In this document: positions 4,394-26,534 of the stretch, one piece after another
Layout of the letters: every line of letters begins with the position of its first letter
How positions within the stretch are numbered: position 1 is the stretch's first letter
From: a bacterium
GTDB lineage: Bacteria > Patescibacteriota > Microgenomatia > UBA1400 > PJMF01
Length of the DNA: 64,000 bases
Assembly: GCA_017431625.1 (NCBI GenBank)
Contig: JAFRKQ010000009.1
Coordinates: forward strand, 11,874-75,873
Direction of reading: 5' to 3'
Notes under the pieces: generated by a model
Seen by the model: only the letters and a program-made list of their open reading frames with translations
The model's database searches: none
Told to the model about the DNA's origin: nothing
Position numbers and translations under genes: made by a program

Positions 4394-4407
4394 GTTTGTG
4401 GTATAAT
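4394..4407 (+). promoter_or_regulatory. extended -10 TGtgGTATAAT promoter element upstream of mscL
   Basis: tttgtggtataat seen directly 9 bp before the 4416 start; the same motif family recurs at 24028 and 54052. Confidence 0.45.
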
Positions 4408-4415
4408 AGGCGTCA

Positions 4416-4925
4416 TTGACGATCAAGAAAGGCCAAATGAGCACCAACAAAAAAAATCTACCAAAATCAGTGCTACCTATCGACGCTCTAGACGACGCTA
4501 CCGCCGCCATCGCCAAGGTCAAAAAAATTCCTCTAGTGCAAGAATTTAGTGATTTTATCGCTCGTGGCAATGTCATTGATCTGGCTGTCGGTGTCATTAT
4601 CGGCGGCGCTTTTGGCAAAATTGTCAGCTCGCTGGTAGACGATATTTTGATGCCGATTCTCGGCGTCTTGCTTAATGGGATAGATTTTTCTGGCCTGAGT
4701 CTCCAGGTCAAAGACGCCCAAATTAATTACGGGCTTTTCTTGCAAAATGTAGTGGATTTTTTGATTGTCGCTATCTGCATTTTTTTCATCGTCAAAGCTG
4801 TCAATAAATTCATGCGGGCTAACCAGACTCAAAGCGAGCCTGCACCCACACCCAAGGGGCCCAGCATTGAGGAAAAGCAGCTCAAACTCCTTGAGGAAAT
4901 CCGCGATAGCCTCGCCAAAAAATAG
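4416..4925 (+). CDS. mscL: large-conductance mechanosensitive channel MscL
   Basis: EFSDFIARGNVIDLAVGVIIGGAFGKIVSSLVDDILMPILG is the canonical MscL TM1/loop signature; the start may be the internal ATG at 4437. Confidence 0.9.
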   Translation: MTIKKGQMSTNKKNLPKSVLPIDALDDATAAIAKVKKIPLVQEFSDFIARGNVIDLAVGVIIGGAFGKIVSSLVDDILMPILGVLLNGIDFSGLSLQVKDAQINYGLFLQNVVDFLIVAICIFFIVKAVNKFMRANQTQSEPAPTPKGPSIEEKQLKLLEEIRDSLAKK

Positions 4926-5008
4926 TCTACTGACCAAAAAGACTTGCAACTTGTCACCAAAGTGTGTATAATGACACGGAGTGTTGAAGTAGACACTCAA
5001 GCACTAAG

Positions 5009-6937
5009 ATGACACAGGCGCAAACTGACACGAGCAACAAATTTGATTTGGATTTGGTCATGCCGGCTTTTGATGAGACGCTGGCCGAGCTGGAAAAGTT
5101 GGTGCCACCCACCAAAAAAACCAGAGGTGAAACTATCCATCAGCCAGGACGATGGGACAACCAAATGGAACAACTCCAAGCTCAAATCGAAGAGCTGTCC
5201 AAACAATTGGAAACTCAAAGCCAAGAACTCGCGCAGACGCTCAAAAGCGAGGTTGCTGAGCCCACAAGCAAACCCCAGGCAGACACAGATGCCCATAAAA
5301 ACATTGATAAAAAGGAAAAAAATGCCTCTACCCTGTTGACTCCAGATTTGCAGCCAGATTTCACCAGCAATGTCCAAAACTGGACTGATAATCCTTTCAA
5401 TAGAGACTTTAGTGTCTATCGCGGTCACGCTCAGCCGCCTATCGCCAGTGTCACCCCAGTGTCAGAGACACCCACCAGTGAAGAAAAACCCCTGCCTCCG
5501 GCTACTGATCCCGACCAAACCACTGTCGTGCCTATTCCCGATGGCGAGCTGATGGTTGGCGAGCCGGCCAAGGCTCCAGCCTCTCAGGATCATTGGCACT
5601 TGATGCGACCACGTGTCAGTCCACCTGTACCCACCGAATCAGCACCCGCCCGGACTATGATCACCAAGCACCCCGAGCCAACGCCAGCGAATACAATCAG
5701 TCAAGATCTCCCCCACCGCTCAGACCCGGATCGGCCCACTGCCACGCCCACGCCCGCCACTGATAAGCCCGGTACAGATGAGCCAAAAACCGAAGTTTTA
5801 CAACCAGACATTGTCGAGGCAAACCGCCAAGAGACACCAGTGCCTGTAACTAATATTGCTGGCCTCCAGCATGCCCGCGCGTTGGCCGCCGATGCGCCCA
5901 CTGAGCCCGTCACCCCCACCAAGATCTTAGCCCCACGCGACAGTGAGCCAGAGCCGGCTCCCGTCATTGTTGACCCCAAGGCAGAAACTCCAGTCCCGCC
6001 AGACACCCAAGTTGACAACTCAACTCCAACACCGGCTCAAGAGGTGACGACTACCGACACCGAGTCTGACAAAGCTGACACCTCGACTTTATCCTCCAGT
6101 GATTTTGCGCTCTCGGACGATGAACAGGCAGCCCTAGGTCTCACCGCTGAAGAAAAAAAACTCCTAAAAAAAATGCGCCGCCGCCAGGAAAAAAGGCATT
6201 CGGCCAGTCATGGCGCTTTGGTCGCTCTTTTGTCTTTGCTCATCATCATTGCTTTGGCACTGACCGCTGCCTGGGTATGGTTTGGCGGCGTGGAAAGCGA
6301 GCAGTATGCTAGTGAGGGCCATCACGCGCCCACCCAAACAGTCACCCGTGAGAGCCTCCAACAAATGGTGGCTACACCCGCTTACACTCTCACTTATTAT
6401 CCGGTAGGCAATCAGTCGCTGACAATCGAAATCGTCCACTCCGGTACTAGTACCCTCGTGCGCGATGTCACGATGGGACGGACTTACTTGCAAAAAAATG
6501 GTCAGTTCTACGATCTGGGGCCAGCAGGTCAGACGGCTACTAAGTTGGATCAACCGCCTGCTGGTTTTGACAACTATCTAGTACTCACGCCAGAGATACT
6601 GGGGGCCAAACAAGCCGAGGAGTCTGTTTCTTTGCATGGCCAACTTTATGTTGCTGAAAGTTACGGCGATTACACCGCCTATTTCCAAGAAGGCGACTTG
6701 AAGATCATTGCCCGCCAGACGGCTCAAGGTGAGCCTAGCGAGTATGCCATCCAAACGTTTACCAAAACAGCCGCGCCGGATTTTGATGCCCTGCCTGGAG
6801 AGGCTAGTGAATCAACCGCTCCAGAAAGCACCCAAGCGGCCAGTAATAAAATCAAGCTCGAGACGGTAGCAATTGATATGCCTGAGAATAATGTCATGGG
6901 TGAGCTGGCCGTTGGCCAATACATTGTTTTTGACTAA
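5009..6937 (+). CDS. Pro/Thr-rich low-complexity protein with a central transmembrane helix
   Basis: 642-aa ORF; N-terminal coiled-coil-like QLQAQIEELSKQLETQSQEL; long P/T-rich tracts; TM segment HGALVALLSLLIIIALALTAAWVWFGG. Upstream promoter TTGCAA, 17 bp, TGtgTATAAT at about 4947-4975. Confidence 0.6.
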   Translation: MTQAQTDTSNKFDLDLVMPAFDETLAELEKLVPPTKKTRGETIHQPGRWDNQMEQLQAQIEELSKQLETQSQELAQTLKSEVAEPTSKPQADTDAHKNIDKKEKNASTLLTPDLQPDFTSNVQNWTDNPFNRDFSVYRGHAQPPIASVTPVSETPTSEEKPLPPATDPDQTTVVPIPDGELMVGEPAKAPASQDHWHLMRPRVSPPVPTESAPARTMITKHPEPTPANTISQDLPHRSDPDRPTATPTPATDKPGTDEPKTEVLQPDIVEANRQETPVPVTNIAGLQHARALAADAPTEPVTPTKILAPRDSEPEPAPVIVDPKAETPVPPDTQVDNSTPTPAQEVTTTDTESDKADTSTLSSSDFALSDDEQAALGLTAEEKKLLKKMRRRQEKRHSASHGALVALLSLLIIIALALTAAWVWFGGVESEQYASEGHHAPTQTVTRESLQQMVATPAYTLTYYPVGNQSLTIEIVHSGTSTLVRDVTMGRTYLQKNGQFYDLGPAGQTATKLDQPPAGFDNYLVLTPEILGAKQAEESVSLHGQLYVAESYGDYTAYFQEGDLKIIARQTAQGEPSEYAIQTFTKTAAPDFDALPGEASESTAPESTQAASNKIKLETVAIDMPENNVMGELAVGQYIVFD

Positions 6938-7120
6938 AGTTGTGAGCCTTCTGTACTCACAGTGATAATTATTATTGATAGATCAATGTTTTTTTGTGAG
7001 CCTTAAAGGCTCACATAATTCATCCGGTCACAAAGCCCACCCGTCGCAGCTCTGCTAGGTCACATATACCACGAGCAACTCGTTGCCTCATAAACTGATA
7101 AGCCAGGCGTAGCCGTGATC

Positions 7121-7519
7121 TTAGAGGGTAGGAATGGAGAGTTTGTTTGCATCGCCAAAACCAATAGTGATGACTAGGTTGAAAATAGCCCAAACGGAAG
7201 CCAAAAGCAAAATCCCAATAGCGGCCGCCAACATCCGATTACGCGCCTCTTCGGTCTTACCTTTATCCCCTTCAGAGGTGATCCAGTTGATCGCTCCCAT
7301 GATCAAATTGTACAGACACAAAAGTGCACCGGCCACAATCGCGATCGTAATGACCCGCTGGACGATAGTTTCCGCATTACTATTCGTCATGGTACTTGGC
7401 TTGACACTACCGATGGCAAACTCATCAGCTTGCACTCGCGGCATCGCTAGTCCCAGACCCAAGCTGAGTACCAGTCCACCAGTCACAATTACTCTTTGGG
7501 ATAAACTCATTTTTTTCAT
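7121..7519 (-). CDS. small two-TM secreted membrane protein, TrbC/VirB2-like pilin candidate
   Basis: Signal peptide, then two hydrophobic helices separated by the loop GDKGKTEEARN; paralog of 7736-8167. Family assignment is from topology only. Confidence 0.4.
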   Translation of the reverse strand: MKKMSLSQRVIVTGGLVLSLGLGLAMPRVQADEFAIGSVKPSTMTNSNAETIVQRVITIAIVAGALLCLYNLIMGAINWITSEGDKGKTEEARNRMLAAAIGILLLASVWAIFNLVITIGFGDANKLSIPTL

Positions 7520-7735
7520 ATCGGCCTTATTGCATCTTTATCAGATTGCTAGTTATTATAATATAAATTTTTATTGCTGTCAATATGTAATTTTTATTGA
7601 TACATAAAAATTTTTTTCATAAAATGTCAAAATAATTATTACTATAATTATGACCAGAGGCCATCAAGAATGACAATTGACAAGTGGCTCCCAGTGCCTT
7701 ATAATGATAGCAAGGCATAGATGGAAAGGTAACTG

Positions 7736-8167
7736 ATGACCAGTAAAAAAACTCAATATTGGGGAAAATTCATTCTGTTAGAATCTATTTTGGGTGGTTT
7801 TTTGATCGCGTTGGCGCGCCCCTGCGTGCCCATTGCTGGGGCGCAAAGTTCAGTCGCTTTTAGTCTCGCGCCAGCGGTTTCGCCTGCCGGTAGCATCGCT
7901 GTTGAGACCAACTCGCAAACACTTTTGAGTCGGATTATCACTTTAGTCATCGTGGTGGCGGCACTCCTTGCCCTTTATAATCTGATTATGGGCGCTATTG
8001 ACTACATTAATTCTGGTGGTGACAAGAGCAAAACTGAGGAAGCTCGCGGTCGTATCATTGCCGCTGTTATCGGGCTTTTGGTGCTCGCCTCAGTCTGGGC
8101 GATCTTTAATTTGGTCGTCACTGTGGGCTTTGGTGGTGCTAGCAACCTTAATATCCAGCAATTCTAA
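7736..8167 (+). CDS. small two-TM secreted membrane protein, TrbC/VirB2-like pilin candidate (divergent paralog of 7121-7519)
   Basis: Shared core LYNLIMGAIDYINSGGDKSKTEEARGRIIAAVIGLLVLASVWAIFNLVVTVGFG; divergent AT-rich promoter region 7520-7735. Confidence 0.4.
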   Translation: MTSKKTQYWGKFILLESILGGFLIALARPCVPIAGAQSSVAFSLAPAVSPAGSIAVETNSQTLLSRIITLVIVVAALLALYNLIMGAIDYINSGGDKSKTEEARGRIIAAVIGLLVLASVWAIFNLVVTVGFGGASNLNIQQF

Positions 8168-8186
8168 AATCCTGATCCAAAAAAAC

Positions 8187-8212
8187 AAAATCCCGGCAAG
8201 ACCGGGATTTTT
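8187..8212 (+). terminator. rho-independent terminator
   Basis: aaaatcccgg-caaga-ccgggatttt stem-loop plus T-run directly after the 8167 stop. Confidence 0.7.
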
Positions 8213-8228
8213 AGTAGCCTCCTACAAT

Positions 8229-8275
8229 TTGATAATCATTATCAAATTTGCCATTAAATTGATAGTCATTATCAA
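8229..8275. promoter_or_regulatory. two Fur-box-like 7-1-7 palindromes: TTGATAATCATTATCAA (8229-8245) and TTGATAGTCATTATCAA (8259-8275)
   Basis: Perfect match to the TGATAATnATTATCA Fur 7-1-7 consensus; unusually placed between two convergent 3' ends. Confidence 0.45.
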
Positions 8276-8376
8276 TTTCCAGACTAGACACAAAAGTGCC
8301 CTCTATACAGAGGGCCGATTCTTTGATTGTGAGCCGACCGCCAGTGGAGGCCAGCGGTAGCTTGAGTGAAAACCAA

Positions 8377-10614
8377 TTAACGCTTTTGACTCCGTCTCAA
8401 AGCGACTGCTAGAAGGAGCCAGCACCAAGCGCCCCCGAAAATACCGCAACCGCCGCTACTTGAGCCCACGCCGGTAACGGGCGGATTGGTCGGTACCGAG
8501 GGGGAGTGATCATCGAACTGATCATTGTCAGTGGGTGGTTGCTCGCTGGGCGGGTCATCAGGACTGGGCTGATCATCTGTAGGCTGTTCATCACTGGGTG
8601 GCTGATTGTTGCCAGGATTATCAACTGGCGGATTATCACTGGGTGGCTGCTGGTCGTCACTAGGCTCACCAGGATCGCTGGCACTAGCCAGTCTCAAACC
8701 CCAGCCGGTGGGCAAAAGAGTCTGATCCAGCTGGTAGAGGCCGTCAATAACATCAGGGATAGCGACAGGCAGACGACCACAAAAATCAGCTTGCTGGTCA
8801 TAGAGTTTGTAGATGATCGCTGGCACCAGCGCGCCAAATTTGGGCTGATTGTCGGCAGTCTCAATCGCCGTCGACATGCCATTGGCCAGATATCCCGCCA
8901 GTAAAGCATCCGCTTCACCATAGTAAAGCCCCAGGTCATACGGCAAGTGACAACTCGCAATGATGATTTTCGCTCCTCGTGCCCGCAAAGTCTCAAGCAG
9001 CGGCAGGACAACCTTGATCTCGTCACTGTAAGGTACGGGTGAGTCTGGACTCAATTCCGACTCGTAATACACTGAGCTTAAAATCACTACTGTCTCTACC
9101 TCCTCCAACGTCGTTAACAGATTTTCGTCGTGAACATTCATGACCTTGACCGCTGCTGCTTGCTCCTGAGTTAGCTGACCGGCAGTCACTAGCTGTGCGA
9201 GACCATAGTTCACTGATCTGGTTTGTGAGTTGTAGTAGTGTAAGACCGCGACTTTTTCGTCAGGACTCAGTGGCAAGGCGTTGTCAAGATGATCGACCAG
9301 GGTGATCGCCTCCAGTGCTACTGGCCACTGAATGTCATGATGCTCTTGAGTGCTCACCGTCTGCAAAGCCGTCTGCGCTTGTGTTTGCGCCTGAACATCC
9401 GTAAGGGTGTATGGGGTCAGCAGACCGTGTTTTTGCTTGAAAGTCAAGATTCTAGTCACCGCTGCATCGAGTTTGGTCTGCAAATTAGTATCAGCACTTA
9501 CTTGAGCACCAAAAGTCTCCAGAGCCGTTTTGAAAGCCTCCACACTCGAGGGCTGATTGAGCTCTAGTGAGTAGGGCAAAATATCGACTCCTGCCTCGAG
9601 CGCAAGCTGGAGCACCTGCACAGCCGAGAAATGATGAGTGATCAGGGTGCCCAAAATTGCGTCGGCCACCACCAGACCGTCAAAACCCAATTCTTCGCGC
9701 AAAAGTCCGGTGACAACCGCTGGCGACAGCGAGGCTGGCAAGGTGTATGTCTGATTGTCGGCCGCCTGAAAGGTGCGAGTTTCCAAGCTTGGGTAGCTGG
9801 TGTGAGTCACCATCATCATATCCACCAAGCCCGCCTCAAGACTACGCTTGAAAGGCAAGAGCTCACAGGCATCCATTTGCGCTCGTGTCTTGTCGACAAT
9901 CACGGGTTGGTTGGTGTCATCGGTGTTTTCGCTAGCGCTGCCCATGCCGGGGAAATGTTTGAGACAATTGAGCACTCCTGCCTGGCGTAGACCAGACAAA
10001 TAAGCCTGAGCGTGAGCCGCGACGACATCGGGCGAATCACCAAAAGTGCGCACCACCAGAGACTCAAGACGCGGATTGGTGAGGACATCGGCTAGAGGTG
10101 CCAAATTAACATTGATCCCCAGAGCCTGGATTTCCGTACCCATCATCTGGGCGATCTCCTGAGTATGAGTGGGATTGCCAGTCGCTGCCAGTGCCATCGG
10201 GCTGATACCAGCGGTGGAGCGAGCCAAACGCGCTACCAGACCACCTTCCTGATCTACCATTATAAACAATTGGGGTCGAGTGTCCTGACTGACATTGGCC
10301 TGCTGCAACTGGTGAATCAAAAGTGTGCCGGTATCGTTGGCTGTCAGATTTTCGCCGTAAAGAATGATACCAGCAAAAGGATAAGTGCTGATCAACTGGG
10401 CTACCTCATCATTAAGGACAGTTACGTCATCAGTGGTGCCGCCATTGATTTTGCGATGGGCCGGGACGAGCAGCTGACAGATTTTTTCCTGAGTGGTCAT
10501 TGAGGATAGAATTTCCTCCGGAGTCTGGGCCGCATCCGCCGGTAGAGACGACAACAAAACGAAAGCAAGTGTTACCAATAGAATACGCTTCATGATCGTA
10601 TTTCCTCCTTGCAA
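8377..10614 (-). CDS. secreted glycoside hydrolase family 3 (NagZ-like beta-hexosaminidase/beta-glucosidase) domain protein with Pro-rich linker and a GGC + TM + basic C-terminal tail
   Basis: Signal peptide MKRILLVTLAFVLLSSLPADA; GH3 motifs DQEGGLVARL and KHFPGMGSAS...D; C-terminus GGCGIFGGAWCWLLLAVALRRSQKR. Confidence 0.75.
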   Translation of the reverse strand: MQGGNTIMKRILLVTLAFVLLSSLPADAAQTPEEILSSMTTQEKICQLLVPAHRKINGGTTDDVTVLNDEVAQLISTYPFAGIILYGENLTANDTGTLLIHQLQQANVSQDTRPQLFIMVDQEGGLVARLARSTAGISPMALAATGNPTHTQEIAQMMGTEIQALGINVNLAPLADVLTNPRLESLVVRTFGDSPDVVAAHAQAYLSGLRQAGVLNCLKHFPGMGSASENTDDTNQPVIVDKTRAQMDACELLPFKRSLEAGLVDMMMVTHTSYPSLETRTFQAADNQTYTLPASLSPAVVTGLLREELGFDGLVVADAILGTLITHHFSAVQVLQLALEAGVDILPYSLELNQPSSVEAFKTALETFGAQVSADTNLQTKLDAAVTRILTFKQKHGLLTPYTLTDVQAQTQAQTALQTVSTQEHHDIQWPVALEAITLVDHLDNALPLSPDEKVAVLHYYNSQTRSVNYGLAQLVTAGQLTQEQAAAVKVMNVHDENLLTTLEEVETVVILSSVYYESELSPDSPVPYSDEIKVVLPLLETLRARGAKIIIASCHLPYDLGLYYGEADALLAGYLANGMSTAIETADNQPKFGALVPAIIYKLYDQQADFCGRLPVAIPDVIDGLYQLDQTLLPTGWGLRLASASDPGEPSDDQQPPSDNPPVDNPGNNQPPSDEQPTDDQPSPDDPPSEQPPTDNDQFDDHSPSVPTNPPVTGVGSSSGGCGIFGGAWCWLLLAVALRRSQKR

Positions 10615-10766
10615 AAGATTTCACTTCATTTGTCAAAGATCTTTGGGTCGCTCGCCTCCACGAGTCAGACCGCCAATGATCTTATCGCAAATGCAAGCAA
10701 TAGCGGCGATTATACCACAAAAATAGTCGTTTGACGATCAAAAGCTAGCTCGACTGATGAGCAATT

Positions 10767-10795: not shown

Positions 10796-12664
10796 TTACG
10801 CTGCCAGACTGATGAAAAGCTGCTCCAAATCCTCACGTTGAAAATGTTTAAGAGCAGTCGACTCCAGGGCGTTACCAGCATAATACTGAGCGTATTGATC
10901 CACTTCCTTGATGTATTTTTGTTTGAGCTGTTCGATGGCCTCGATCACTTGCTCCAAAAGCTCTCCACGCCTGGATTCCTCAAGCGCTGACACGGTGCTG
11001 GTCAAATGATTAACTTCCTCAGGGGTCATTTGCGCGACAGTTTTGGACACTGGCGTTGGTTTTTCTGGCGTTGACATGATCTTTTTGGCCGCACCTCGCA
11101 CCTTTTTCCAACTGGAGCTGCCAGATTTTCCGACCCCGCTTGGCGCGACAGGAGCCTTGGGCGTAACCGACATTGATCTTGAAGCTCGCCTTCTGATTAT
11201 TGGATCCGGCAAGTGCACCTTTTGGCGTATCGAAGACGGGATAATAATATCGGGCTGACAATATTTATCCAAAAAGCTCAAGATATTAATAGGCTCACTA
11301 GTAGTAATGGCATTGGCGGGTGCTGTCGGGCTACCTTCATTTTTGAGTAAATATTGGTATGATAATTCACCTAGTTGCTCGCGCAGTTGCACCATAAAAG
11401 CAGCCAAAAGTGCTCGGGCCTGACTGTCCACAGCCGGAGCAAAGAGGCGATTATTCTCATCTCGCGATATCAGCTGACCATTTTTGTCGAGTGTGCATTC
11501 CACATCTTCATTTTCTGCTTTGTACATTACCAAAAAAAGTGCTTGTTTGAGTGCCTCGCTATCCGGCATCTGCTTGATTATGGCCATTTTTTCGTTGTCA
11601 CCGTTTGCCTGCTCAAGCAAATTATGTCGGCGTCTTTTAATCAGTGCTTGGCGAAAAAAGTCTAAAAGTTCACGATTTTTGTCGCTCGAGCGGTTGAGTG
11701 GCGAATTGGGGTCGCTCGCAGCCAGTGCATTATCAAGTTTGGCTTTTTGTGCCAGTTTATCAATAATATACGCCTGAGCGTAAAGTTCCATTAGTACTAA
11801 ATTGCCCAGGCGAAATGATTCTCGAATATAATCAAAATCTTCATTATTATTCTCCAAAAATTCTGCTTGCGCTAAGCTCTTGATTGTGCTCGCCTCAGCG
11901 CTCGCGATAAAACGCGGTAGGTTGGCAAGACCATATTTCACCCCAACATCGTCTTGTGGCTGATCAGTAAAGTCCGAAGGGCGGAAATATTTCACTTCAG
12001 TGATTTCTTGATTATTGAGCAATTGACTCAAGTGCCACAACTTACGATTGGCAAAATCTTGGGTGTACTTGGTATTGAGAGTGGCATCAATGCCAAAAGC
12101 TCGAAACTCACCATTGTCACGCTCTCCGGTTACCGTCAGACAATCCACACCGTGAGCAATATCATCATAGCGATCAACGCTAAACGTACGACAAAGCTCA
12201 TATCCCTGGGTACCTGGTTGTATGCCAGCCTTGTCATAGCTAGTGCCATCAGCCATCAAACCGTCGGCAAACCACTCTGCATCCCGCGCTTGGCGCAAAA
12301 CTAGGCTTTCTAGCAATTTGGCGACACCGCGATTGTATTCACGATCGCGACGATCAGGATACAAAGACTCATCACGAGAGAATATCTTTTCTTGCTGCTC
12401 GACATAAGCATTATCTTGATTGAGCACACCACCGGTATAACCTTGACTCATGCGACCATTGGGCATCATGACACTGACATAGTCATCCCGATCCAGGCGG
12501 TAGGTGACCTTGCCAACAATGTCCAGATCTTCATAGACCTCTAGCGCGGTTGCAGCCTCTATCAACCGTTGCATCCAGTCAGCTTTCGCTGCGCTCACAT
12601 CCACCTCAGCGCTATTGCCACTCCAATTATCCAAACGTTTGTTCTCATAGTATGCCATACTCAT
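10796..12664 (-). CDS. large hypothetical cytoplasmic protein (622 aa)
   Basis: Long ORF with no signal peptide and no recognised domain; coiled-coil C-terminus. Near-leaderless promoter TTGACA, 17 bp, TATACT ending 3 bp before the ATG (12665-12697, minus strand). Confidence 0.6.
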   Translation of the reverse strand: MSMAYYENKRLDNWSGNSAEVDVSAAKADWMQRLIEAATALEVYEDLDIVGKVTYRLDRDDYVSVMMPNGRMSQGYTGGVLNQDNAYVEQQEKIFSRDESLYPDRRDREYNRGVAKLLESLVLRQARDAEWFADGLMADGTSYDKAGIQPGTQGYELCRTFSVDRYDDIAHGVDCLTVTGERDNGEFRAFGIDATLNTKYTQDFANRKLWHLSQLLNNQEITEVKYFRPSDFTDQPQDDVGVKYGLANLPRFIASAEASTIKSLAQAEFLENNNEDFDYIRESFRLGNLVLMELYAQAYIIDKLAQKAKLDNALAASDPNSPLNRSSDKNRELLDFFRQALIKRRRHNLLEQANGDNEKMAIIKQMPDSEALKQALFLVMYKAENEDVECTLDKNGQLISRDENNRLFAPAVDSQARALLAAFMVQLREQLGELSYQYLLKNEGSPTAPANAITTSEPINILSFLDKYCQPDIIIPSSIRQKVHLPDPIIRRRASRSMSVTPKAPVAPSGVGKSGSSSWKKVRGAAKKIMSTPEKPTPVSKTVAQMTPEEVNHLTSTVSALEESRRGELLEQVIEAIEQLKQKYIKEVDQYAQYYAGNALESTALKHFQREDLEQLFISLAA

Positions 12665-12697
12665 GTGAGTATATCATTTGCATGCCACTGTGTCAAG

Positions 12698-12726
12698 AAA
12701 ACAAAAAAGCCCCTCAAAAGGGGCTA
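12698..12726 (-). terminator. rho-independent terminator for a short minus-strand transcript from the 130-bp repeat
   Basis: Minus strand reads agccccttttgaggggcttttttgtttt: GC stem plus U-run. Confidence 0.5.
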
Positions 12727-13025
12727 CACACGCCTAAAGGGTGCTGGCGGTGTCTGCGTCCTGTGGCCAAAGCCTGCCAAAACTCATCTTGACACTGGCG
12801 ACGGATACGCCGCTCAGTTTCGTGGCTATGCCTCATTTCCTCTTGCGACCAACGGTAAATTACCTCACCGTCAATAAAATCGTCATCGCTATAGTCTTCC
12901 AAATCAGTAATACGATCGTTAGTCAAAGCAAATTCCTCCTTGAAAATTACAGAACGATATATTATATCACATTTTATTGTATTTGTCAAGGGTTTATTGC
13001 TGAATTCTACTCCGAAACGCGACAC
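12714..13025 (-). CDS. small acidic ORF (GTG start inside the 130-bp repeat) or non-coding leader; doubtful
   Basis: 103-codon ORF whose 3' end overlaps the terminator hairpin; the second repeat copy does not carry the same ORF. Confidence 0.15.
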   Translation of the reverse strand: MSRFGVEFSNKPLTNTIKCDIIYRSVIFKEEFALTNDRITDLEDYSDDDFIDGEVIYRWSQEEMRHSHETERRIRRQCQDEFWQALATGRRHRQHPLGVCSPF

Positions 13026-13130
13026 CGAGGGGATAATTTAGGCAAATACCTGGGATAGCTCACATTATTACAATATAATGATTACTAAATTAGCAATTTG
13101 ATAATCATTATCAATTTGATACAATCTCAC
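13001..13130. repeat. 130-bp direct repeat, copy 1 (near-identical to 16747-16876), containing a Fur box
   Basis: tgaattctactccgaaacgcgacaccgaggggataatttaggcaaatacctgggatagctcacattattacaatataatgattactaaattagcaatttgataatcattatcaatttgatacaatctcac occurs twice. Confidence 0.9.
13098..13114. promoter_or_regulatory. Fur-box palindrome TTGATAATCATTATCAA inside repeat copy 1
   Basis: Perfect 7-1-7 Fur consensus. Confidence 0.5.
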
Positions 13131-13133
13131 TTT

Positions 13134-16100
13134 TTAACCATTTTGCGCCAAAAACTCCAGATAGCCTGTCAATTTTGGCTGTTGGTATAAATCTGTCCTG
13201 TAAGAATCACCCATACGCGTACAATAAGCATCAATAATCAGCTTCTGATCGTGAGTGTCATAAAATACTTTTTGTATTAGTTGTCCGTCGTGAATCAAAT
13301 CCATAATCACCCGACCAATATCACTAAACTGGCAACCCAAAAGCTTAGCTAGCGTTTTTTGTTGACGTGGCAAGCGATTAACTGCTTGTTCGATCACGCT
13401 TATCTGCTCAGGCGAATAGGCACTCGAGTAGGCACGAGCATAACGATAGACAGTGGCCGGTGGCATTTCACCTTGACTAACCAACAGATGACTGAGTTGA
13501 CGTAAAGAATTAAGATTGATAGCCAGGTGCGGTTCCAGTTGGCTCAAGCGTAAATAGCCATCAGGAATCTGAGTGCGTTCCGGGATTTTTTGGCGGAATG
13601 CCGTCATGATTGTTTCAATGTCAGCTGGTGGGAAAGCCAACACTGGTTGCCCATTGTGAAACATCACCTTTTTACCACTACCGATCACCCCATCAGTTTG
13701 CAACTTGTCGATCAACACCCGCACCGCCTGTGGATCGGCTTGCAAATAATCGCGGGCAATTTTGTGCGCACTCGCCCAACCCGCCAATTGCAAGGTGCTA
13801 CCCTCCAGACGCATTTGCACGTCATCATGGCTCAAGCTACTGATTTGCGCGATTACCTCTGGTGGATAACCAAAAGTATCACCGTGATTGAAATGATAGA
13901 CTTGATGCGGAATGTCAAAAGAATCCAGCAACTTAACCACCGTATCATAACTGATCCCAGCAGCCTTGGCAATCGCTGTGCGAGTGACATAGCCAGCTGG
14001 CGCAGGATCAAGCAATAAGCTATCAGCACTGTGAGTTTGCTCTGTTTTAGCATCAGTGTGTGGAAAGGTCAGGGCGTCAATCATATAGCCAGTGTAGTGA
14101 TCCTGACGATCAATAACTCTGCGGCCCAATCGTGGAAACTGTTCGATGCAAGTATTGAGCTCATTTTTGCTCAAGCGGGCAAAATCAGTAGCCGCCAGTT
14201 GCATCTGATCCAAAATCAAACTATTAAAAACATAAGTAGCATTGCCTTTTTGGTTACAGATCAAAACAAGCCGATCACCGCGATCGTTACTCCCTGGTAC
14301 CAACGGCAAACCGTGTACCTGGATCAAATAATAAGGCGCCTCCCGCAGTGAGTGGATCTCGAGTGGACTTTTGAGCACTTGCAAACTATCCGCGTTGGTA
14401 ATCTCCACCCCAAAGTGCTCGGCTAAAAGCAAACCCACCAACTTAGTACGTCTGGTAATTTCAGCTTTTTCAAAGGCCTTCGCGCTAGTGCCACCCGAGC
14501 GTAAATTGTTCACTCGTGGATCTTCATCGGTTTCAACCAAAACCCGATCAGCCACAGTGGCCACATCAAGGATATAATCCACTTGATGTGCTTTTTCTTG
14601 CAAGGCTTCAACTTTAGCCAAAGTGGTAGCCACATCGGGAATACCAAAATATTCACATACAGCATCCTCAAGGCTCTGGCTATCAATTTCAGCCGATTGT
14701 GGGAAAAGATCCAGGTATTCCTGTTTTTTGGCTTCAAGCAGCTCCAGGAATTGTTCCATCACCAGTTGCGGATATTCATTAACATTATCTTCAGTCAGCT
14801 GTAACTGAAGACTAGAGAGTGTTTCTGGCGTTGGTTCGCGAAATTGTCCTTCGGGATTTTCTGGTACAAGGATTTCTGGCGCGACTGGCGACATAGCCTC
14901 TTCCTGGTCACTACCAGACGCTAGCGACTCAATCTGCACCACTGGTGGCAACTCCGAATCAGCCTCAAAAACGCTCGCGGCCGCTTCTGCTTGTTTTTTC
15001 GCCAGCAACTGTTGTTGAGCGCGCTCATGACGTACCCGCAATTTACCCACAAAATTGGTAAATGATTCTGTTTTGAGACTTGCGCTGGCCAGACTGCGGA
15101 AAGTACCAGCACCAAATGCCTTTTCGGTGGTTCTCGCGATAGGCAGATAATTACCACTAATCATGGCATAATTCCACATTTGAGTAATTCTATCAGTGTT
15201 AATTTGCGGATCACCAGCTGCCTGAGACAAAAGCTCATTAAACCGAGCCAGTGTCTCACGTTCTTTTTGATGGTCACTTGCCCCAAGATAGCGAATCTTT
15301 TGGTGACCCTTTTTCTCCACCGGAATCAGAACGCTCGCCATAGCAAGTTTTTCGGCCACTTCAGGGTCGGGATTATTGGCCAACTGGTCACGCAACTGTT
15401 GATCAGTTTGTCGCACCGATGTCAAAAATGGGTTAGTCTGCAACTCAAATGCCATCACTTCTTGGGTCAGATTGGCTGTCAGAGCTTCTTGAATTTGTAT
15501 AAAATGACCTTGGCGAGATTGAACACGACCCGACAGATTACCACCTCGTCTTAATTGTGTGTTGGCTTTTGGCGGTGTAATCAAATCAACTCCTTGACGA
15601 TACACATATCCCACTGGTTGATTATATTCATTATTAGCATCAACCATATATGCCGTGTAGCCCATGGGTTTAACTAATGCACGAATAATTTGATAATAAA
15701 GCTCCGCTTTATTGTATCTGTGCGGATTGATACGGATCTCGATGTATTGACCGCTCTCACTAAAATACGTATTCTCGTTTTGCTCGGGCATACCAGCGTG
15801 CAATTTGTCCCAGCCACTAGAGGTATAAAAGTGAAACATCCGGTGATCAATAGCCCGCAAGGGTAATCCGTTATCGGCTCGGATGACATTAAGAGTCTCT
15901 ATTAATTGGTCAATTTGTGCTGGCCACTCGGGATCAAGGGTAGTAACATCCACCACCTCATCTGGATTAAGTTTAGCTTTTTCAGCAGCAATCTTCAATT
16001 CCGTCGGATTTAAATTATTCATGAATACACGCCGCATATCTTCAGGCAGCTTAGCAAAATGTTCAAACGTTTCTGGGCCATCTACCTGCGTATTAATTAG

Positions 16101-16700
16101 ATGATCAGTAGCCCTGAGGTGTTGATTGCGGTAAAAGGCACGTTGCTTTTTATCCACGTCGAGACTTATGTAGAATTCATCGATTGTACCTTGCGAGCGG
16201 TGTTGTGTTACCGCCTGATCCAAAACCGCCCGAGTTTCCGCAGCAATGCTCTCGCCTGGTCTCCAAGCCAAAAGCTCTTGCCAAACCGTTGGTTGTTGTA
16301 TAGCCTGAAATAAAGAGTCCTTATTAGTTACCGTCCACGGCCATTGATATAAGAGGTGCTCTAAATGTGAGAGTCGGCGATTGAAATATAGTTTGAGGTT
16401 GCCATGATGTTCACCGTTTGCTGTCAACCGAGGATTGATTTTGCAAAATTGCTCGTACAAATAATCATCAGCATACAAATGGTGGCGATGTGCCAAACCT
16501 GAAGCGATCAAAACGACCAAAAATTCACGCTCGCTTGTAAGCAAGTTATCTACTAACTGGTCAATGTTAGCTGCAGACGCCAGCTCTAAAGACGCGGGGT
16601 TTTCCTGAACTGATGGTAAATCTGTACTTTCCAGAGCATTATCATAAACAGTTGACATGTAGTCATCACTATTATGAATAGATGCATTTTCTTTCATCAT
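13134..16700 (-). CDS. very large hypothetical cytoplasmic protein (1188 aa)
   Basis: Uninterrupted ORF with no signal peptide or recognisable motif; own near-leaderless promoter TTGACA, 17 bp, TATGAT at 16703-16731; the 130-bp Fur-box repeat lies 45 bp further upstream. Confidence 0.7.
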   Translation of the reverse strand: MMKENASIHNSDDYMSTVYDNALESTDLPSVQENPASLELASAANIDQLVDNLLTSEREFLVVLIASGLAHRHHLYADDYLYEQFCKINPRLTANGEHHGNLKLYFNRRLSHLEHLLYQWPWTVTNKDSLFQAIQQPTVWQELLAWRPGESIAAETRAVLDQAVTQHRSQGTIDEFYISLDVDKKQRAFYRNQHLRATDHLINTQVDGPETFEHFAKLPEDMRRVFMNNLNPTELKIAAEKAKLNPDEVVDVTTLDPEWPAQIDQLIETLNVIRADNGLPLRAIDHRMFHFYTSSGWDKLHAGMPEQNENTYFSESGQYIEIRINPHRYNKAELYYQIIRALVKPMGYTAYMVDANNEYNQPVGYVYRQGVDLITPPKANTQLRRGGNLSGRVQSRQGHFIQIQEALTANLTQEVMAFELQTNPFLTSVRQTDQQLRDQLANNPDPEVAEKLAMASVLIPVEKKGHQKIRYLGASDHQKERETLARFNELLSQAAGDPQINTDRITQMWNYAMISGNYLPIARTTEKAFGAGTFRSLASASLKTESFTNFVGKLRVRHERAQQQLLAKKQAEAAASVFEADSELPPVVQIESLASGSDQEEAMSPVAPEILVPENPEGQFREPTPETLSSLQLQLTEDNVNEYPQLVMEQFLELLEAKKQEYLDLFPQSAEIDSQSLEDAVCEYFGIPDVATTLAKVEALQEKAHQVDYILDVATVADRVLVETDEDPRVNNLRSGGTSAKAFEKAEITRRTKLVGLLLAEHFGVEITNADSLQVLKSPLEIHSLREAPYYLIQVHGLPLVPGSNDRGDRLVLICNQKGNATYVFNSLILDQMQLAATDFARLSKNELNTCIEQFPRLGRRVIDRQDHYTGYMIDALTFPHTDAKTEQTHSADSLLLDPAPAGYVTRTAIAKAAGISYDTVVKLLDSFDIPHQVYHFNHGDTFGYPPEVIAQISSLSHDDVQMRLEGSTLQLAGWASAHKIARDYLQADPQAVRVLIDKLQTDGVIGSGKKVMFHNGQPVLAFPPADIETIMTAFRQKIPERTQIPDGYLRLSQLEPHLAINLNSLRQLSHLLVSQGEMPPATVYRYARAYSSAYSPEQISVIEQAVNRLPRQQKTLAKLLGCQFSDIGRVIMDLIHDGQLIQKVFYDTHDQKLIIDAYCTRMGDSYRTDLYQQPKLTGYLEFLAQNG

Positions 16701-16746
16701 GATATGATCATATCATGATAAGTTCATTTTGTCAAATAATTGTGGC

Positions 16747-16876
16747 TGAATTCTACTCCGAAACGCGACACCGAGGGGATAATTTAGGCAAATACCTGGG
16801 ATAGCTCACATTATTACAATATAATGATTACTAAATTAGCAATTTGATAATCATTATCAATTTGATACAATCTCAC
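16747..16876. repeat. 130-bp direct repeat, copy 2, containing a Fur box
   Basis: See copy 1; identical over about 130 bp. Confidence 0.9.
16844..16860. promoter_or_regulatory. Fur-box palindrome TTGATAATCATTATCAA inside repeat copy 2
   Basis: Perfect 7-1-7 Fur consensus. Confidence 0.5.
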
Positions 16877-16930
16877 CTTTTTGTTAAACGCGTGTTAAAC
16901 ACTCACATCTGGTTTTTGGTGACAAAATTA
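16874..16930 (+). repeat. cassette-boundary repeat R0 (5'-truncated variant): ttgttaaacgcgtgttaaacactcacatctggtttttggtgacaaaa
   Basis: Shares the tandem GTTAAACGC units and the ATCTGGTTTTTGGTGACAAAA block with R1-R9. Confidence 0.7.
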
Positions 16931-16951
16931 ATAACATTACCAATAAAAAAA

Positions 16952-19036
16952 CTATCGATTGGCCCAATACTCGCGCAATCCAGGAAGCATCGAGTCAAAT
17001 TCACTTCGATATTGCGCGATTAATTGCGTATCCAAATTACTAGTCGCAAAACGTTGCGGCGAAACTTGATTGGAACTCTCAGAATAAAAGTCTTCGCCCA
17101 TAAACGCACGCTGACCATAATCATCAAGCACAAATTGTTGATTATATTGCGGCAAGCCAAAACCACCATTACCATTGGTGGGATCAAAAATATAAATTTC
17201 TCCACCTTCGCCATTGTCATTGGGGATATTGACGCCCACATAGGCATGGCGACCTCGCACTTCACCTGTATCAGCGCGAGCGACCCCGCCCAAAGTGTAG
17301 CAATCATAACCAAGCCTTTCCATGACTGCGTGATAAACAGAGGAAAAGCCAGTGCAAATTGCTTGCTGTTCATCAAAAGCGCGCGACATCTCGTATGATT
17401 GTTGCTCTGAGGTGGGAATCGTAAATTTAATTGGTGTCTCGTAATAATTATGATCATAATTTATGAAGTGATGTAAATATTCATTAAGCAAGACACTAGT
17501 GCGAATTGTCTGAGCACGCCGCTGACTCGCCGGCACTTCACTGGCCGGCACCAGACCCAAAAGATCAATCGTATCTTGGATTCCCTCAGAGACGATGCGA
17601 TCACGTTCAGGTCTTTCACTGATAAATTGATCATAGACTTTGAGTCGCCAACTATATTCAGGATGCCCTGCCACCAACTGACGAAAAAAGGGGTCGCCAC
17701 CATAGTGACGCACGCTTTGCGATGCGGGCAAATTGCGGAAAAAGTGAGCTTGACCAGCTTGTGTCAAATAATAATGTTCCTGACCGTCGCTGCCAATTTG
17801 GCGGCGAGCCATAAGCCGAAAATATTCGCTCCCGCCAAAACGAGCTTCCACTTGCGCCGCCGGTGTCCGCGCCAAGTATTCTTCCATTGCCGAAAAATCA
17901 ACCTCTGGGGCATGTGGCAACTCGCCACCGGGGTACATATTCTCTGTGCGATCATCGATTGCTGAGAGCAATGTTGAGGTGTCATATTTAGTCGCATAAA
18001 AGTCTTCAATTCTTGAATGCGAACGGTGTGTCGAGTGATACTCCTGATAAGCCTTCACAACGGCCTGACTTAACTCATCGCGATAACGTTCGATAGCCGG
18101 GTTGCTAGTAACCAAAGGTGCCCGCCGCTTACCATCAGTCAGATAGGGAATCAAATCATCCTCATTGCCAGGCGCATGAGCCATGATCACCCGCATCGTA
18201 CTTGGGTCATAGCGGAAGTCCTCCGTTTGGAGCCAATTCTCGTCAACAGGCAACTGGTCATATTGTTCCTGGCGTTGATTGACTTGTTGGGCAGCTTCAA
18301 AAGCGCGCAAAAAACTGTGATCGCGGGCTCCGATTTGTCTTACTTGTTCAGGTGTCAAAGTATATTCCTGCTCGTGATCGCGCGCCACCACATCGCCATA
18401 AGCAAGAAAGTCAAATGTCAAAGTATCGTGATCAAAATTAAGCGAGTTAGTATCTATTTCTTCTTCCGGCTCTTCATCTGCGCGTTCGGCTGCCGCCTCC
18501 TCTTCTTGTAATTTTTGGTAAGCAGCTTTTAGGCGTTCATAAAATACAGGATCGCGTTCACAAATTCTCTTAATCTGATCAAAATTTAATTTCACATCGT
18601 AATTACGATCACCAACATAAATCTCACCGTGCAAACCAAAAACAAATTTCAAAGTGTCATGATCAAAAACTACTGTCTCCACATCCACTGTTGTCTGTTT
18701 GGGTTGTTCTGGCACTCCCAAAGATGACACTTCAGTAGATGGCGTTGGGGTACTAGCGCCACTTTCACGCAATGTTCGCAAAAACTCACGTCCACGCTGC
18801 GAGCCGCCATAGCGTTTGATAAAATCAGTCAAGCTCAAACTTTGCGTTTCGCCTGCGTATTTGATCACCACTGTCTGGCCACCATCAATACTGGATAAAT
18901 GGGCTTGCTCAAGAGGAATGGCAAAAGATGTGTTTTCCAATTCTGATTCGGGCTGCTCGTGATCGAGGGTCGGTAATTCTGAGTCAGTCGCCAAAAGACT
19001 CGGATCAAGGACGGCTGTTTCTGTTTGTGTTGACAT
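16952..19036 (-). CDS. large protein with internal ~50-aa repeats and a C-terminal transglutaminase-like cysteine-protease core
   Basis: C-terminus QAICTGFSSVYHAVMERLGYDCYTLGG...GRHAYVGV...IYIFDPTNG gives a Cys/His/Asp transglutaminase-like triad; repeats VVFDHDTLKFVFGLHGEIYVGDRNYDV and LNFDHDTLTFDFLAYGDVVARDHEQEY; promoter TTGGCA...TTATAAT at about 19040-19075 (minus). Confidence 0.65.
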   Translation of the reverse strand: MSTQTETAVLDPSLLATDSELPTLDHEQPESELENTSFAIPLEQAHLSSIDGGQTVVIKYAGETQSLSLTDFIKRYGGSQRGREFLRTLRESGASTPTPSTEVSSLGVPEQPKQTTVDVETVVFDHDTLKFVFGLHGEIYVGDRNYDVKLNFDQIKRICERDPVFYERLKAAYQKLQEEEAAAERADEEPEEEIDTNSLNFDHDTLTFDFLAYGDVVARDHEQEYTLTPEQVRQIGARDHSFLRAFEAAQQVNQRQEQYDQLPVDENWLQTEDFRYDPSTMRVIMAHAPGNEDDLIPYLTDGKRRAPLVTSNPAIERYRDELSQAVVKAYQEYHSTHRSHSRIEDFYATKYDTSTLLSAIDDRTENMYPGGELPHAPEVDFSAMEEYLARTPAAQVEARFGGSEYFRLMARRQIGSDGQEHYYLTQAGQAHFFRNLPASQSVRHYGGDPFFRQLVAGHPEYSWRLKVYDQFISERPERDRIVSEGIQDTIDLLGLVPASEVPASQRRAQTIRTSVLLNEYLHHFINYDHNYYETPIKFTIPTSEQQSYEMSRAFDEQQAICTGFSSVYHAVMERLGYDCYTLGGVARADTGEVRGRHAYVGVNIPNDNGEGGEIYIFDPTNGNGGFGLPQYNQQFVLDDYGQRAFMGEDFYSESSNQVSPQRFATSNLDTQLIAQYRSEFDSMLPGLREYWANR

Positions 19037-24586: not shown

Positions 24587-24595
24587 CTGTCAACC

Positions 24596-24672
24596 AAAAC
24601 ACGATATCATTTACCGATTCTTTATCGCGTTTGCTATCACTTCTGCCTGGGGAGACCACAAACGCGATACTA
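24596..24672 (+). repeat. partial copy (E-b) of the larger composite repeat element
   Basis: aaaacacgatatcatttaccgattctttatcgcgtttgctatcacttctgcctggggagaccacaaacgcgata matches the 5' half of 29237-29396. Confidence 0.75.
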
Positions 24673-24815
24673 AATAACTAAAGGCTATAGTGTTTTGGCC
24701 GACGCGAAAAAGTTTTTCAATTAGACTTGAAAAGTTGGTGATGATAACGCAATCGCGCTGACTGCTACCGACATATGTACTGTTAAAATCGTGATATTAT
24801 GATATAATCGCTCAT

Positions 24816-26534
24816 ATGACTCAGAATAAAGCGAGAGTAAAAAGACACTGGCACGTACTTGTGTTAGCTTTAATTATCGCGCTGGCAAGTTTTTTCCGAC
24901 TCTGGCATTTAAACCAGCTACCTTATGCCCTTCACGATGACGAAGTCTGGAATGCCTATCTGGGCAAATTTATTATTTTAAATCATCAAGATGTCAACGG
25001 TCAGAAGTGGCCGTGGCTTTATTCAGATAAATTTGGCGATTATCCGCCAGTACTACCCATGTATTTATCTGGTCTCACCGCGATTTTTTTTGGCGACAAT
25101 GCCCTAGCTGTGCGTTTGCCGATTGCCATTTGTGGCATTATTAATGTAATCACCGTTTATTTTTTGGCGAAGTTTTTATTTGCTGATACTCGAGCGGCAC
25201 TGGTAGCCACTTTGTTTATGGCTATTTGCCCTTGGCACGTTATTCTCTCGCGCGCTACAGCAGAAAATATCGTTGCTACCAGTGTATTTTCACTAGGTAT
25301 ATTAGTGCTCTTTACAGCTTTGGAAAAGCAAAAAGTTTCTGGCAAACTATTGGTGTCATTATTATTGCTCCTGACTACTTATTTGCTTTATCCGAGTTAT
25401 CGGGTGTTAATACCTTTATTTTTATTGCCGACATTTTTACTTACACCGCCAAAGTCATTAATTCGTCAATGTATGGTGACGGCTACTATTGTTGCTTTTG
25501 GCTTGACATTCATAATCGGCCACACTGATTGGGGCAAAGGACGCTATGATCAAATTTCTATCTGGACACATGGTGGTGAAATTGCCGGCAAGTCGCTTAA
25601 TTATTCACTTGCCCTCGGTCCAGGTCGAGTTTTGGAAGCGAGAATTTTTAATAATAAATATGTTTTAGTAGCAAGAGAATTTTTGCGACAGTATAGCACC
25701 TATTTTTCTGCGCAGTTTCTTGCTGGCGAAGGGTTTATGGAGCCGAAGCGTTATCATCTGATTGAGCATGGAGTCGCTTATTGGTCATTGATTTTGGTAA
25801 TAATTCTTTTTGTGTTGGTGCAAATTGTCAGACCCTACACACTACCACAATTGTCAGCAACTTTCAAACGTCAAAGGTGGCGGTATTTTTTGCTATTGTT
25901 GTGGTTTTTATTGATAGCGCCATTGCCAGCCGCACTGACACTCGAGGAAGTTCCCAATATTCATCGGACTCTAGGAATGGTTGTGGTTTGGTCTTTACTT
26001 TTTGGTTGGTTAACATGTCGGCTATTGGCAGCCAAGCTCACAAGACACTGGTTGATGATAGCCGCTGTTGGTCTCGGACTAGTATTTTGTAGCGAGGCGA
26101 TTTATTTTTGGCACACTTACACCACATTGGACTATGAGAGTAATTTTATTTATCGCGATGATGCCAAAAAACTTATCAGCGAGTGGTTACTGGCCCAGCA
26201 TGACGAGAAAATACCAATTCTCATTCCTCAAGCTGGCAATTTAATTCTTCATTACTTGTTTTTTGGTGGCAATTACGACCCATCGTTGGTGGGCCAATTT
26301 GAAGATGGCTTGAGCATTGAGGTCTTCCATCATTTACATCCAGTTTTTGATCCTTGCAAGCAAGCCCAAAAAATTCTCAAATTACAACCAAACGAAAAAA
26401 TATTGGTCGTGAGTGAGCAAGACAATTGTGAAGGTTTGGTTTTGCGTGACAAAATTGTCAGACACAACTTGACCGATGCTTATTATATTTGGGAAGCAAG
26501 TCGCGAGGGAATATTGCCAGTCAACGAACTTTAG
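24816..26534 (+). CDS. GT-C fold glycosyltransferase (ArnT/PMT family, GT39/GT83-like) polytopic membrane protein
   Basis: More than 10 predicted TM helices; conserved DE motif in the first extracytoplasmic loop (LHDDEVWNAYLGKF). Confidence 0.65.
   Translation: MTQNKARVKRHWHVLVLALIIALASFFRLWHLNQLPYALHDDEVWNAYLGKFIILNHQDVNGQKWPWLYSDKFGDYPPVLPMYLSGLTAIFFGDNALAVRLPIAICGIINVITVYFLAKFLFADTRAALVATLFMAICPWHVILSRATAENIVATSVFSLGILVLFTALEKQKVSGKLLVSLLLLLTTYLLYPSYRVLIPLFLLPTFLLTPPKSLIRQCMVTATIVAFGLTFIIGHTDWGKGRYDQISIWTHGGEIAGKSLNYSLALGPGRVLEARIFNNKYVLVAREFLRQYSTYFSAQFLAGEGFMEPKRYHLIEHGVAYWSLILVIILFVLVQIVRPYTLPQLSATFKRQRWRYFLLLLWFLLIAPLPAALTLEEVPNIHRTLGMVVVWSLLFGWLTCRLLAAKLTRHWLMIAAVGLGLVFCSEAIYFWHTYTTLDYESNFIYRDDAKKLISEWLLAQHDEKIPILIPQAGNLILHYLFFGGNYDPSLVGQFEDGLSIEVFHHLHPVFDPCKQAQKILKLQPNEKILVVSEQDNCEGLVLRDKIVRHNLTDAYYIWEASREGILPVNEL

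Follow-up and report, generated by a model that had tools for sequence, protein, structure and literature searches.

A 132-bp direct repeat carrying a Fur-type palindrome brackets a strain-variable gene in an uncultured gut bacterium of the Patescibacteria

The DNA considered here is a stretch of 64,000 nucleotides (hereafter the window, with position 1 as its first letter) from contig JAFRKQ010000009.1 of assembly GCA_017431625.1, in which an exact direct repeat of 132 bp carries a Fur-type palindrome in each of its two copies. The copies, at 12999-13130 (copy 1) and 16745-16876 (copy 2), are offset by 3746 bp in an ungapped comparison, and about 38 further bases to the left of the exact repeat match at roughly 65%. 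A preliminary description of the window had reported a near-identical direct repeat of 130 bp, which is borne out with a length of 132 bp and exact identity. Copy 1 lies upstream of a 70-codon gene (12714-12926, minus strand), beyond which follows a gene for a protein of 622 amino acids (aa) at 10796-12664. Copy 2 lies upstream of a gene for a protein of 1188 aa (13134-16700, minus strand), and its right end forms the left arm of the first element of an 11-copy repeat array, next to a gene for a protein of 694 aa. The same two-copy arrangement is found in contig L001 of an independent assembly, which is 99.89% identical and shows no single-nucleotide polymorphism (SNP) in either copy; an assembly artefact is therefore ruled out.

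The window has Pfam matches that include type IV secretion system (T4SS) pilins, RNase Y, BipA and a GH3 hydrolase. BipA-anchored loci in GTDB genomes place it in the Patescibacteria, or Candidate Phyla Radiation (CPR), with gut metagenome-assembled genomes (MAGs) as the nearest relatives (90-92% BipA amino-acid identity), followed by Pace-, Beckwith- and Woesebacteria at 55-64%. The 132-bp sequence is a single intergenic module of this uncultured gut bacterium. CPR bacteria cannot be grown alone, and to our knowledge almost nothing is known of their transcriptional regulation and genome plasticity. Paralogues of the T4SS pilin (window 7121-8167 and 46432-49438) lie 1-4 kb from bipA in three relatives (loci L004, L005 and L053), whereas they lie 38 kb from it here, from which we infer that 8.2-46.4 kb is a lineage-specific accessory region. 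A palindrome doublet stands at the left edge of this region, and the most diverged array element together with a tRNA-His gene stands at its right edge.

The two module copies bracket a unit of 3,746 bp (12999-16744, or equivalently 13131-16876), which consists of one module copy, the 1188-aa gene and the promoter of that gene. A look-up with the 70-aa protein yielded L071 and L072, metagenome contigs of the same species from two other samples and two assemblies, which are 99.9% identical to the window yet possess one module copy and no 1188-aa gene. Their gene order is the 694-aa gene, one module, the 70-codon gene, the 622-aa gene, the GH3 hydrolase gene and the pilin gene. Positions 1-3750 of L071 correspond to window 20494-16745 and positions 3613-9186 to window 13135-7563, and the overlap of 138 nt is the single module. 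In the alignment, the empty site is thus composed of the 694-aa-side flank of copy 2, the module, and the 70-codon-side flank of copy 1. The filled form is present in the independent contig L001 as well as in the window, and the filled and empty forms differ by exactly one unit, i.e., one repeat and the intervening DNA. The contig name of L072 gives k = 141; because this value exceeds the 132-bp repeat length and the empty form occurs in two samples, collapse of the repeat during assembly is unlikely. The recent duplication proposed in the preliminary description is strongly supported by these contigs. It can be stated with high confidence that the repeat brackets a strain-variable unit, and the repeat is the footprint of the gain or loss of a gene between strains.

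A difference of exactly one unit is the product expected of homologous recombination within the module. A circle with a single copy of the module would integrate at a resident module, or the unit would be deleted between the direct repeats, and either event would account for the 100% identity of the copies. In the empty, possibly ancestral, arrangement a single module lies between the terminal array unit and the promoter of the 70-codon gene. The locus resembles the known gain and loss of genes by homologous recombination at short direct repeats (Campbell-type), in that one repeat and the DNA between the copies make up the whole difference between the two forms, and the copies are identical. 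It represents a gene polymorphism caught in the act, in which a 132-bp repeat mediates, within one species, the presence or absence of a protein of DNA-binding type.

Further copies of the module were not found. The module, the combination of box and promoter, and the array core each gave 0 matches in IMG/VR; the array core was likewise absent from GTDB representatives and from JGI metagenomes, and the module occurs in no relative. At the DNA level, the stretch 12600-17000 gave no match of near-identity to plasmids (megablast); phages were searched with protein by tblastn rather than with DNA, and the 1188-aa protein matched neither plasmids nor phages in this way. A miniature inverted-repeat transposable element or an insertion sequence was rejected by inspection, as the ends (GCTGAATTC... 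and ...CAATCTCAC) form no terminal inverted repeat and no flank is duplicated. RNA folds of both module strands were no better than those of shuffled sequences (z = 0.44 and −1.56), and a structured RNA was rejected accordingly.

Each module copy contains the palindrome TTGATAATCATTATCAA, in a perfect 7-1-7 form, at 13098-13114 in copy 1 and at 16844-16860 in copy 2. The doublet at 8229-8275, whose centres are 30 bp apart, lies between the terminator of the pilin gene (8187-8211) and that of the GH3 gene (8298-8315). Its first site (8229-8245) is again TTGATAATCATTATCAA and extends to a perfect 23-bp palindrome, while its second (8259-8275) is a one-mismatch variant, TTGATAGTCATTATCAA, with flanks that differ from those of the first. 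The preliminary description had counted two further boxes here; both are present, one perfect and one with a single mismatch. A weaker second site, ATATAATGATTACTA, lies 26 bp to the left of the main box (13073-13087, and likewise 16819-16833), agrees with the consensus at 10 of 14 positions, and falls within an inverted repeat found in the module.

These matches are far above chance. Within 8.7 kb, TGATAATCATTATCA occurs three times perfectly and once with one mismatch, where 0.25 matches are expected by chance. When up to two mismatches to the 15-mer are allowed, the window gives 9 strand-hits vs. 0.25 expected (100 shuffles, with a largest shuffle value of 2), and eight of the nine are the four palindrome sites. 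The perfect 7-1-7 Fur consensus that had been claimed is real, at 14/14 positions in three sites. All four sites cluster in one lineage-specific accessory block, with none elsewhere in the 64-kb window and none, at 0-1 mismatch, in ~1.08 Mb of related CPR loci. The four sites are, as judged from their alignment, related by descent rather than independent: the two module copies are duplicates, and the first doublet site aligns with the module over ~33 nt in inverted orientation.

The palindrome overlaps a promoter-like site on the plus strand. This site, TTGATA-16-TGaTACAAT, sits in the AT-rich right third of the module (13098-13125 in copy 1, 16844-16871 in copy 2), agrees with the consensus at 10 of 12 positions and has the TG of an extended −10 element; promoters that stand directly before genes in the window score 11-12 of 12. 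The palindrome covers the −35 hexamer and 11 nt of the spacer. In copy 1 the site is directed into the 3′ end of the 1188-aa gene, and in copy 2 into that of the 694-aa gene and into array element 1. On the minus strand, the 70-codon gene has a promoter that matches at all 12 of 12 positions (TTGACA-17-TATAAT, 12961-12989) and lies outside the exact repeat. The promoter of the 1188-aa gene (TTGACA-17-TATGAT, 16707-16735, minus strand) is 6 nt before the ATG, which makes the gene leaderless, and that of the 622-aa gene (TTGACA-17-TATACT, 12668-12696, minus strand) is 3 nt before the ATG. Both of these near-leaderless promoters had been described correctly, as had the terminator of the 70-codon gene (12725-12708).

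The proposal that Fur controls the two large genes is not supported. The −35 hexamers of the minus-strand promoters lie 109 bp from the edge of the palindrome, with start sites ~152 bp from its centre, and the box overlaps the plus-strand promoter instead. An overlap of operator and promoter is absent for the 70-codon, 622-aa and 1188-aa genes and present only for the predicted plus-strand promoter. Each copy had also been placed upstream of a large gene, which holds for copy 2 and the 1188-aa gene, while copy 1 precedes the 70-codon gene and not the 622-aa gene directly.

Copy 1 had further been proposed to drive a Fur-controlled small RNA (sRNA) of ~300 nt. The predicted transcript, from the promoter at 12989-12961 to an intrinsic terminator at 12725-12708, is roughly 250 nt long and contains a 70-codon open reading frame (ORF) with a TTG start, AAGGAGG 7 nt upstream, and a stop codon in the loop of the terminator (12708-12725, minus strand). 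Its codon score of 0.165 compares with 0.21 ± 0.08 for in-frame 70-codon windows of real genes and −0.40 ± 0.16 off frame, and the ORF has a gene call on each of three metagenome contigs (L001, L071 and L072). Rfam matches nothing at 12700-12960. Because of the strong Shine–Dalgarno sequence, the gene-like codon score and the three gene calls, the proposed sRNA is the messenger RNA of a 70-codon protein gene. It does resemble Fur-repressed sRNAs such as RyhB, PrrF and FsrA in its length of ~250 nt, strong promoter, intrinsic terminator and position beside a Fur-type box. However, it differs from them in encoding a 70-aa protein behind a Shine–Dalgarno sequence, in having its box 109 bp upstream of the −35 hexamer, and in lacking an Rfam match, the sole PrrF hit being at the doublet with 25.8 bits against a threshold of 90. 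A second hidden transcript had been suspected at the doublet, where no promoter-like site was found and only sub-threshold Rfam hits occur. These are the only three hits of the Rfam scan, PrrF among them, and they were rejected as evidence because they are driven by the palindromes and a terminator.

The 1188-aa protein can be assigned to a family in its C-terminal half only. An exhaustive search found 369 representatives that match residues ~615-1110, an uncharacterised family with a ~270-aa domain containing the motif RTILVCDEEGNATYVF, followed by 4-6 tandem ~70-aa winged helix-turn-helix (HTH) repeats that end in ...YSPEQQ..I. Family profiles compared with PDB, NCBIfam and Pfam gave generic HTH hits only. 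An AlphaFold model of the C-terminus, made without an alignment, reached a mean predicted local distance difference test score (pLDDT) of 39, in which only residues 21-80 of the modelled fragment resemble a winged HTH, and the model was not used for a fold search. A DNA-binding role of the protein is plausible from its sequence family. The full-length 1188-aa protein and the 622-aa protein have no homologue beyond the species (a word-indexed search returned nothing or the query itself), and conservation of the box upstream of orthologues could not be found for these two proteins, which have none. The nearest homologue of the 1188-aa protein is P0002, at 43% identity, in the closest MAG and in a different gene context.

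The module adjoins an array of 11 copies of a ~100-nt element, all on the plus strand, between 16866 and 46438. The elements are at 16866, 20010, 21287, 22094, 23872, 26663, 29385, 31362, 33079, 34429 and 46318, and the terminal unit (array unit 1, 16863-16930, plus strand) has the promoter end of module copy 2 as its left arm, i.e., the promoter arm TTTGATACAATCTCAC. Two other elements, e26695 and e29438, begin with TTGATAAT, which is shared with this arm. The core reads TGTTAAACGCGTGTTAAACG...ATCTGGTTTTTrGTGACAAAAA, and its motifs are a pair of TGTTAAACG phased by 11 bp together with TTTTTGT/ACAAAAA; the GTTAAAC motif is a direct and not an inverted repeat. The elements separate accessory genes (DUF2281-PIN, RhuM/Fic, a chloramphenicol acetyltransferase (CAT), three DUF1016 nucleases, hydrolases and a glycosyltransferase), and the array region has a GC content of 38.6% vs. 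47-48% in the flanks.

This layout recalls chromosomal integrons with homogeneous attC arrays, e.g., the Vibrio cholerae repeats. Co-oriented repeats of ~100 nt separate accessory cassettes (toxin–antitoxin, CAT, nucleases), most cassette genes end just before a repeat, and a predicted promoter covered by a putative operator stands at one end of the array, as the integron integrase promoter overlaps a LexA operator. However, the window holds no IntI or other recombinase, the repeats do not fold as attC hairpins and lack an R″/R′ inverted core pair, the cassette genes lie on both strands, and the sole unit shown to be strain-variable is bounded by the 132-bp module rather than by array repeats. 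The recombinase result covers most window ORFs of at least 120 aa and several smaller ones. Hairpins of attC type were rejected on a consensus fold of −2.5 kcal/mol and single-stranded DNA z-scores of −0.3 to −1.25. Of the features that define an integron, co-oriented repeats between cassettes are thus present, while an adjacent integrase and attC hairpins are not. No cassette shuffling was seen in other samples, where the contigs found keep the window order or break at repeats, and a literature search on integrons in Saccharibacteria or Patescibacteria returned nothing relevant. The array is best treated as an unexplained feature and a separate lead, and it may be more unusual than the module.

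The explanation that best accounts for the locus overall, to which we give about an even chance, is that a dimeric repressor, possibly of the Fur family, uses the palindrome as its operator and acts on the outward promoter, within a module that serves as a substrate for gene gain and loss. Both halves belong to known kinds, namely an operator-bearing intergenic repeat and an insertion or deletion mediated by direct repeats. The operator half by itself, in which the palindrome would act on the outward plus-strand promoter and/or as a roadblock, falls slightly short of an even chance. A dimeric repressor, most simply of the Fur family because the palindrome matches the 7-1-7 Fur box exactly, would bind the palindrome and silence the outward promoter. 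Transcription from this promoter would enter the convergent gene upstream (the 1188-aa or the 694-aa gene) at its 3′ end, in the antisense direction. The bound protein could also block read-through from that gene. The consensus promoters of the large genes, ~110 bp away, would not be directly controlled.

The comparison with known Fur boxes cuts both ways. The 7-1-7 form TGATAATnATTATCA is said to have been defined for Bacillus subtilis Fur, and the module palindromes and the doublet match a box of this type at 14/14 positions in three sites and 13/14 in the fourth, with AT-rich flanks; the site that covers the −35 hexamer and spacer of a sigma-70-type promoter has the classic position of a repressor. 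However, the promoter covered here faces away from the genes with no ORF downstream, no metal-related genes lie near the sites, and the sites are confined to one accessory block instead of being spread over a regulon. Five more distant CPR relatives encode Fur-family proteins that have a VYR recognition helix of the Fur/Zur type together with an HHHDH motif. That the regulator belongs to the Fur family is a tentative and rather doubtful assignment.

Several results weigh against the operator reading or its Fur form. No Fur-family ORF was found in the six-frame translation of the window or in same-species contigs, with CPR Fur queries included, and no 7-1-7 box (≤3 mismatches) stands beside the fur genes of the distant CPR relatives. 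In Pfam, NCBIfam and PHROGs, the 622-aa, 1188-aa, 694-aa and 70-aa proteins match no iron-related or otherwise informative domain, but they are ORFans. The confinement of all palindrome sites to one accessory block of ORFans counts against Fur in particular. The predicted plus-strand promoter lacks a coding target, and the doublet lacks a predicted promoter. The neighbourhood of P0002 contains neither box nor module, which makes phylogenetic footprinting impossible. Preservation of the palindrome could reflect recency rather than selection, the sites being copies of one another. Lastly, on the side of gene gain and loss, insertion and deletion of the unit both fit the data. A literature search on Fur in Saccharibacteria or Patescibacteria found nothing relevant. 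If the operator reading is nonetheless correct, the locus offers an operator–promoter pair with a textbook Fur-type sequence in a phylum that has Fur-family proteins but no known sites, and a real Fur site would open a first way into the study of how these symbionts respond to metals.

Among the alternatives, the one that survives best, although still unlikely, is that the palindrome is an operator or roadblock of a non-Fur, lineage-specific DNA-binding protein encoded in or near the accessory region, the resemblance to a Fur box being coincidental. The clustering of four sites within 8.7 kb of a lineage-specific block, and their absence from the rest of the window and from 1.08 Mb of relatives, would follow from such a local protein, as would neighbouring ORFans without a metal link. 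The doublet, placed between two terminators, has a position that suits a roadblock or boundary site, and the family of the 1188-aa protein has the 4-6 tandem winged-HTH repeats of a candidate binder. However, a 14/14 match to the Fur 7-1-7 form at three sites would be a strong coincidence, and the ORFs tested included no small HTH or ribbon-helix-helix regulator. The palindromes persist in strains that lack the 1188-aa gene, which shows that the 1188-aa protein is not required for them.

It is quite improbable that the module or palindrome is instead a site-specific recombination site of the array's cassette system, with the 1188-aa unit as a mobile cassette moved by a dedicated recombinase. 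In favour of this, some strains have the unit and others lack it, and both of its junctions carry the module. The identity of the copies ends at ...TACAATCTCAC, close to the start of the conserved TGTTAAACG core of the array element, and the left arm of the terminal element is made up by the module. Palindrome-bearing sequences also occur at each unit boundary (8.2, 13.1 and 16.85 kb). Nevertheless, no window ORF tested has a recombinase domain, and copy 1 is followed on its right by the end of the 1188-aa gene, which is unlike the array core. A 17-bp palindrome with a 1-bp centre misfits the cores of both tyrosine recombinases (6-8 bp spacer) and serine recombinases (2-bp centre). The 132 bp of perfect homology suffice for RecA-type recombination, and array elements in other samples showed no variation in their cassettes.

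A broader form of this idea, speculative and with little probability in our estimate, would join the module and the array into a previously undescribed CPR cassette-accretion platform, with an integron-like layout, double-stranded repeat sites (the TGTTAAACG pair and TTTTTGT/ACAAAAA) and an unknown recombinase. As parts of the same joint claim, the palindrome-covered outward promoter at the array end might be an environmental switch, by analogy with the LexA-controlled integron promoter, and the 1188-aa tandem-HTH gene might be either a freshly captured cassette or a site-binding factor. If the palindrome does belong to the adjoining array, its position may be that of the regulated end in a cassette array of a new kind.

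The original model, in which the boxes are Fur operators and the 622-aa and 1188-aa genes together with a RyhB-like sRNA from copy 1 are under iron control, is now very unlikely. In its favour stand the 7-1-7 match at four sites (three perfect, one with one mismatch), the position of both module copies upstream of minus-strand genes, and the existence of Fur-family genes in the phylum; Fur can also activate from far-upstream sites in some bacteria. However, the box centre lies at about −152 from both minus-strand starts and its edge 109 bp from the −35 hexamers, the "sRNA" has a Shine–Dalgarno sequence, a 70-codon ORF with gene-like codons and gene calls, the 622-aa gene has its own promoter beyond the terminator, and no iron-related domains were found in the neighbouring proteins. 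In addition, only strains with the variable unit and its extra gene have the second box, and a designed two-gene regulon is therefore excluded. Should the palindrome be neither a Fur site nor part of the array, the locus would still show that a perfect Fur box in front of each of two genes may arise from a recombination footprint and need not indicate a regulon.

Equally hard to sustain is a module without present function, whose palindrome and plus-strand "promoter" would be relics of array-element arms that look significant only through recent copying: the descent of the sites from one another, a promoter with no gene to express, a doublet with no promoter and the lack of conservation outside the species would fit, but the array elements read TTGATAATGTAGACAAAA at the equivalent place, from which at least six substitutions, all towards perfect dyad symmetry, are needed to reach the palindrome, and the doublet contributes both a perfect 23-bp palindrome and a separate copy with different flanks and only one mismatch.

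Some further observations concern the array and its surroundings. The flanks of the PMT_2 glycosyltransferase gene (24650-26551; flanks within window 24595-26714) recur contiguously at 29237-29446 without the gene, which is a second, nested presence/absence pattern inside the array. An array cassette (31538-31667) and a core-side gene (63126-63254) share a duplicated terminator together with the 3′ end of ALK_LTK_GRD-domain genes, at 87-98% identity, and the three DUF1016 nuclease genes (40092-43841) share a 231-nt upstream repeat. Near the right edge, a segment of 811 bp (45483-46292) with the tRNA-His gene and the CAT gene has counterparts of 96.7-96.9% identity in another species and two JGI metagenomes (L080, positions 9853-10659; L081; L084). 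That species is represented by MAG GCA_045541795.1, whose bipA is only about 73% identical at the nucleotide level, which suggests, from the sequence comparison, a recent horizontal exchange of the segment. In L080, the segment is followed by a transposase fragment (rve_3).

At the other end of the accessory region, the gene for the surface-anchored GH3 hydrolase (8377-10614) is intact in the window, L071 and L072, while in the L001 strain (L001/L070, 7024-9240) the gene call is split in two (363 and 368 aa), probably through disruption by one of the few SNPs. Finally, a promoter block of 41 nt, CCTCTTGACAAAAAGCCTATAATATGATATAATA, occurs in the window at 51608-51647, 59659-59699 and 62319-62359 (minus strand) and in relatives at 9499-9539 of L002 and 19535-19575 of L047. 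Conservation of the block in relatives reaches 88-95%, against about 73% identity in their coding DNA, and several of the genes at it are leaderless, because they begin 3-9 nt past the −10 hexamer.

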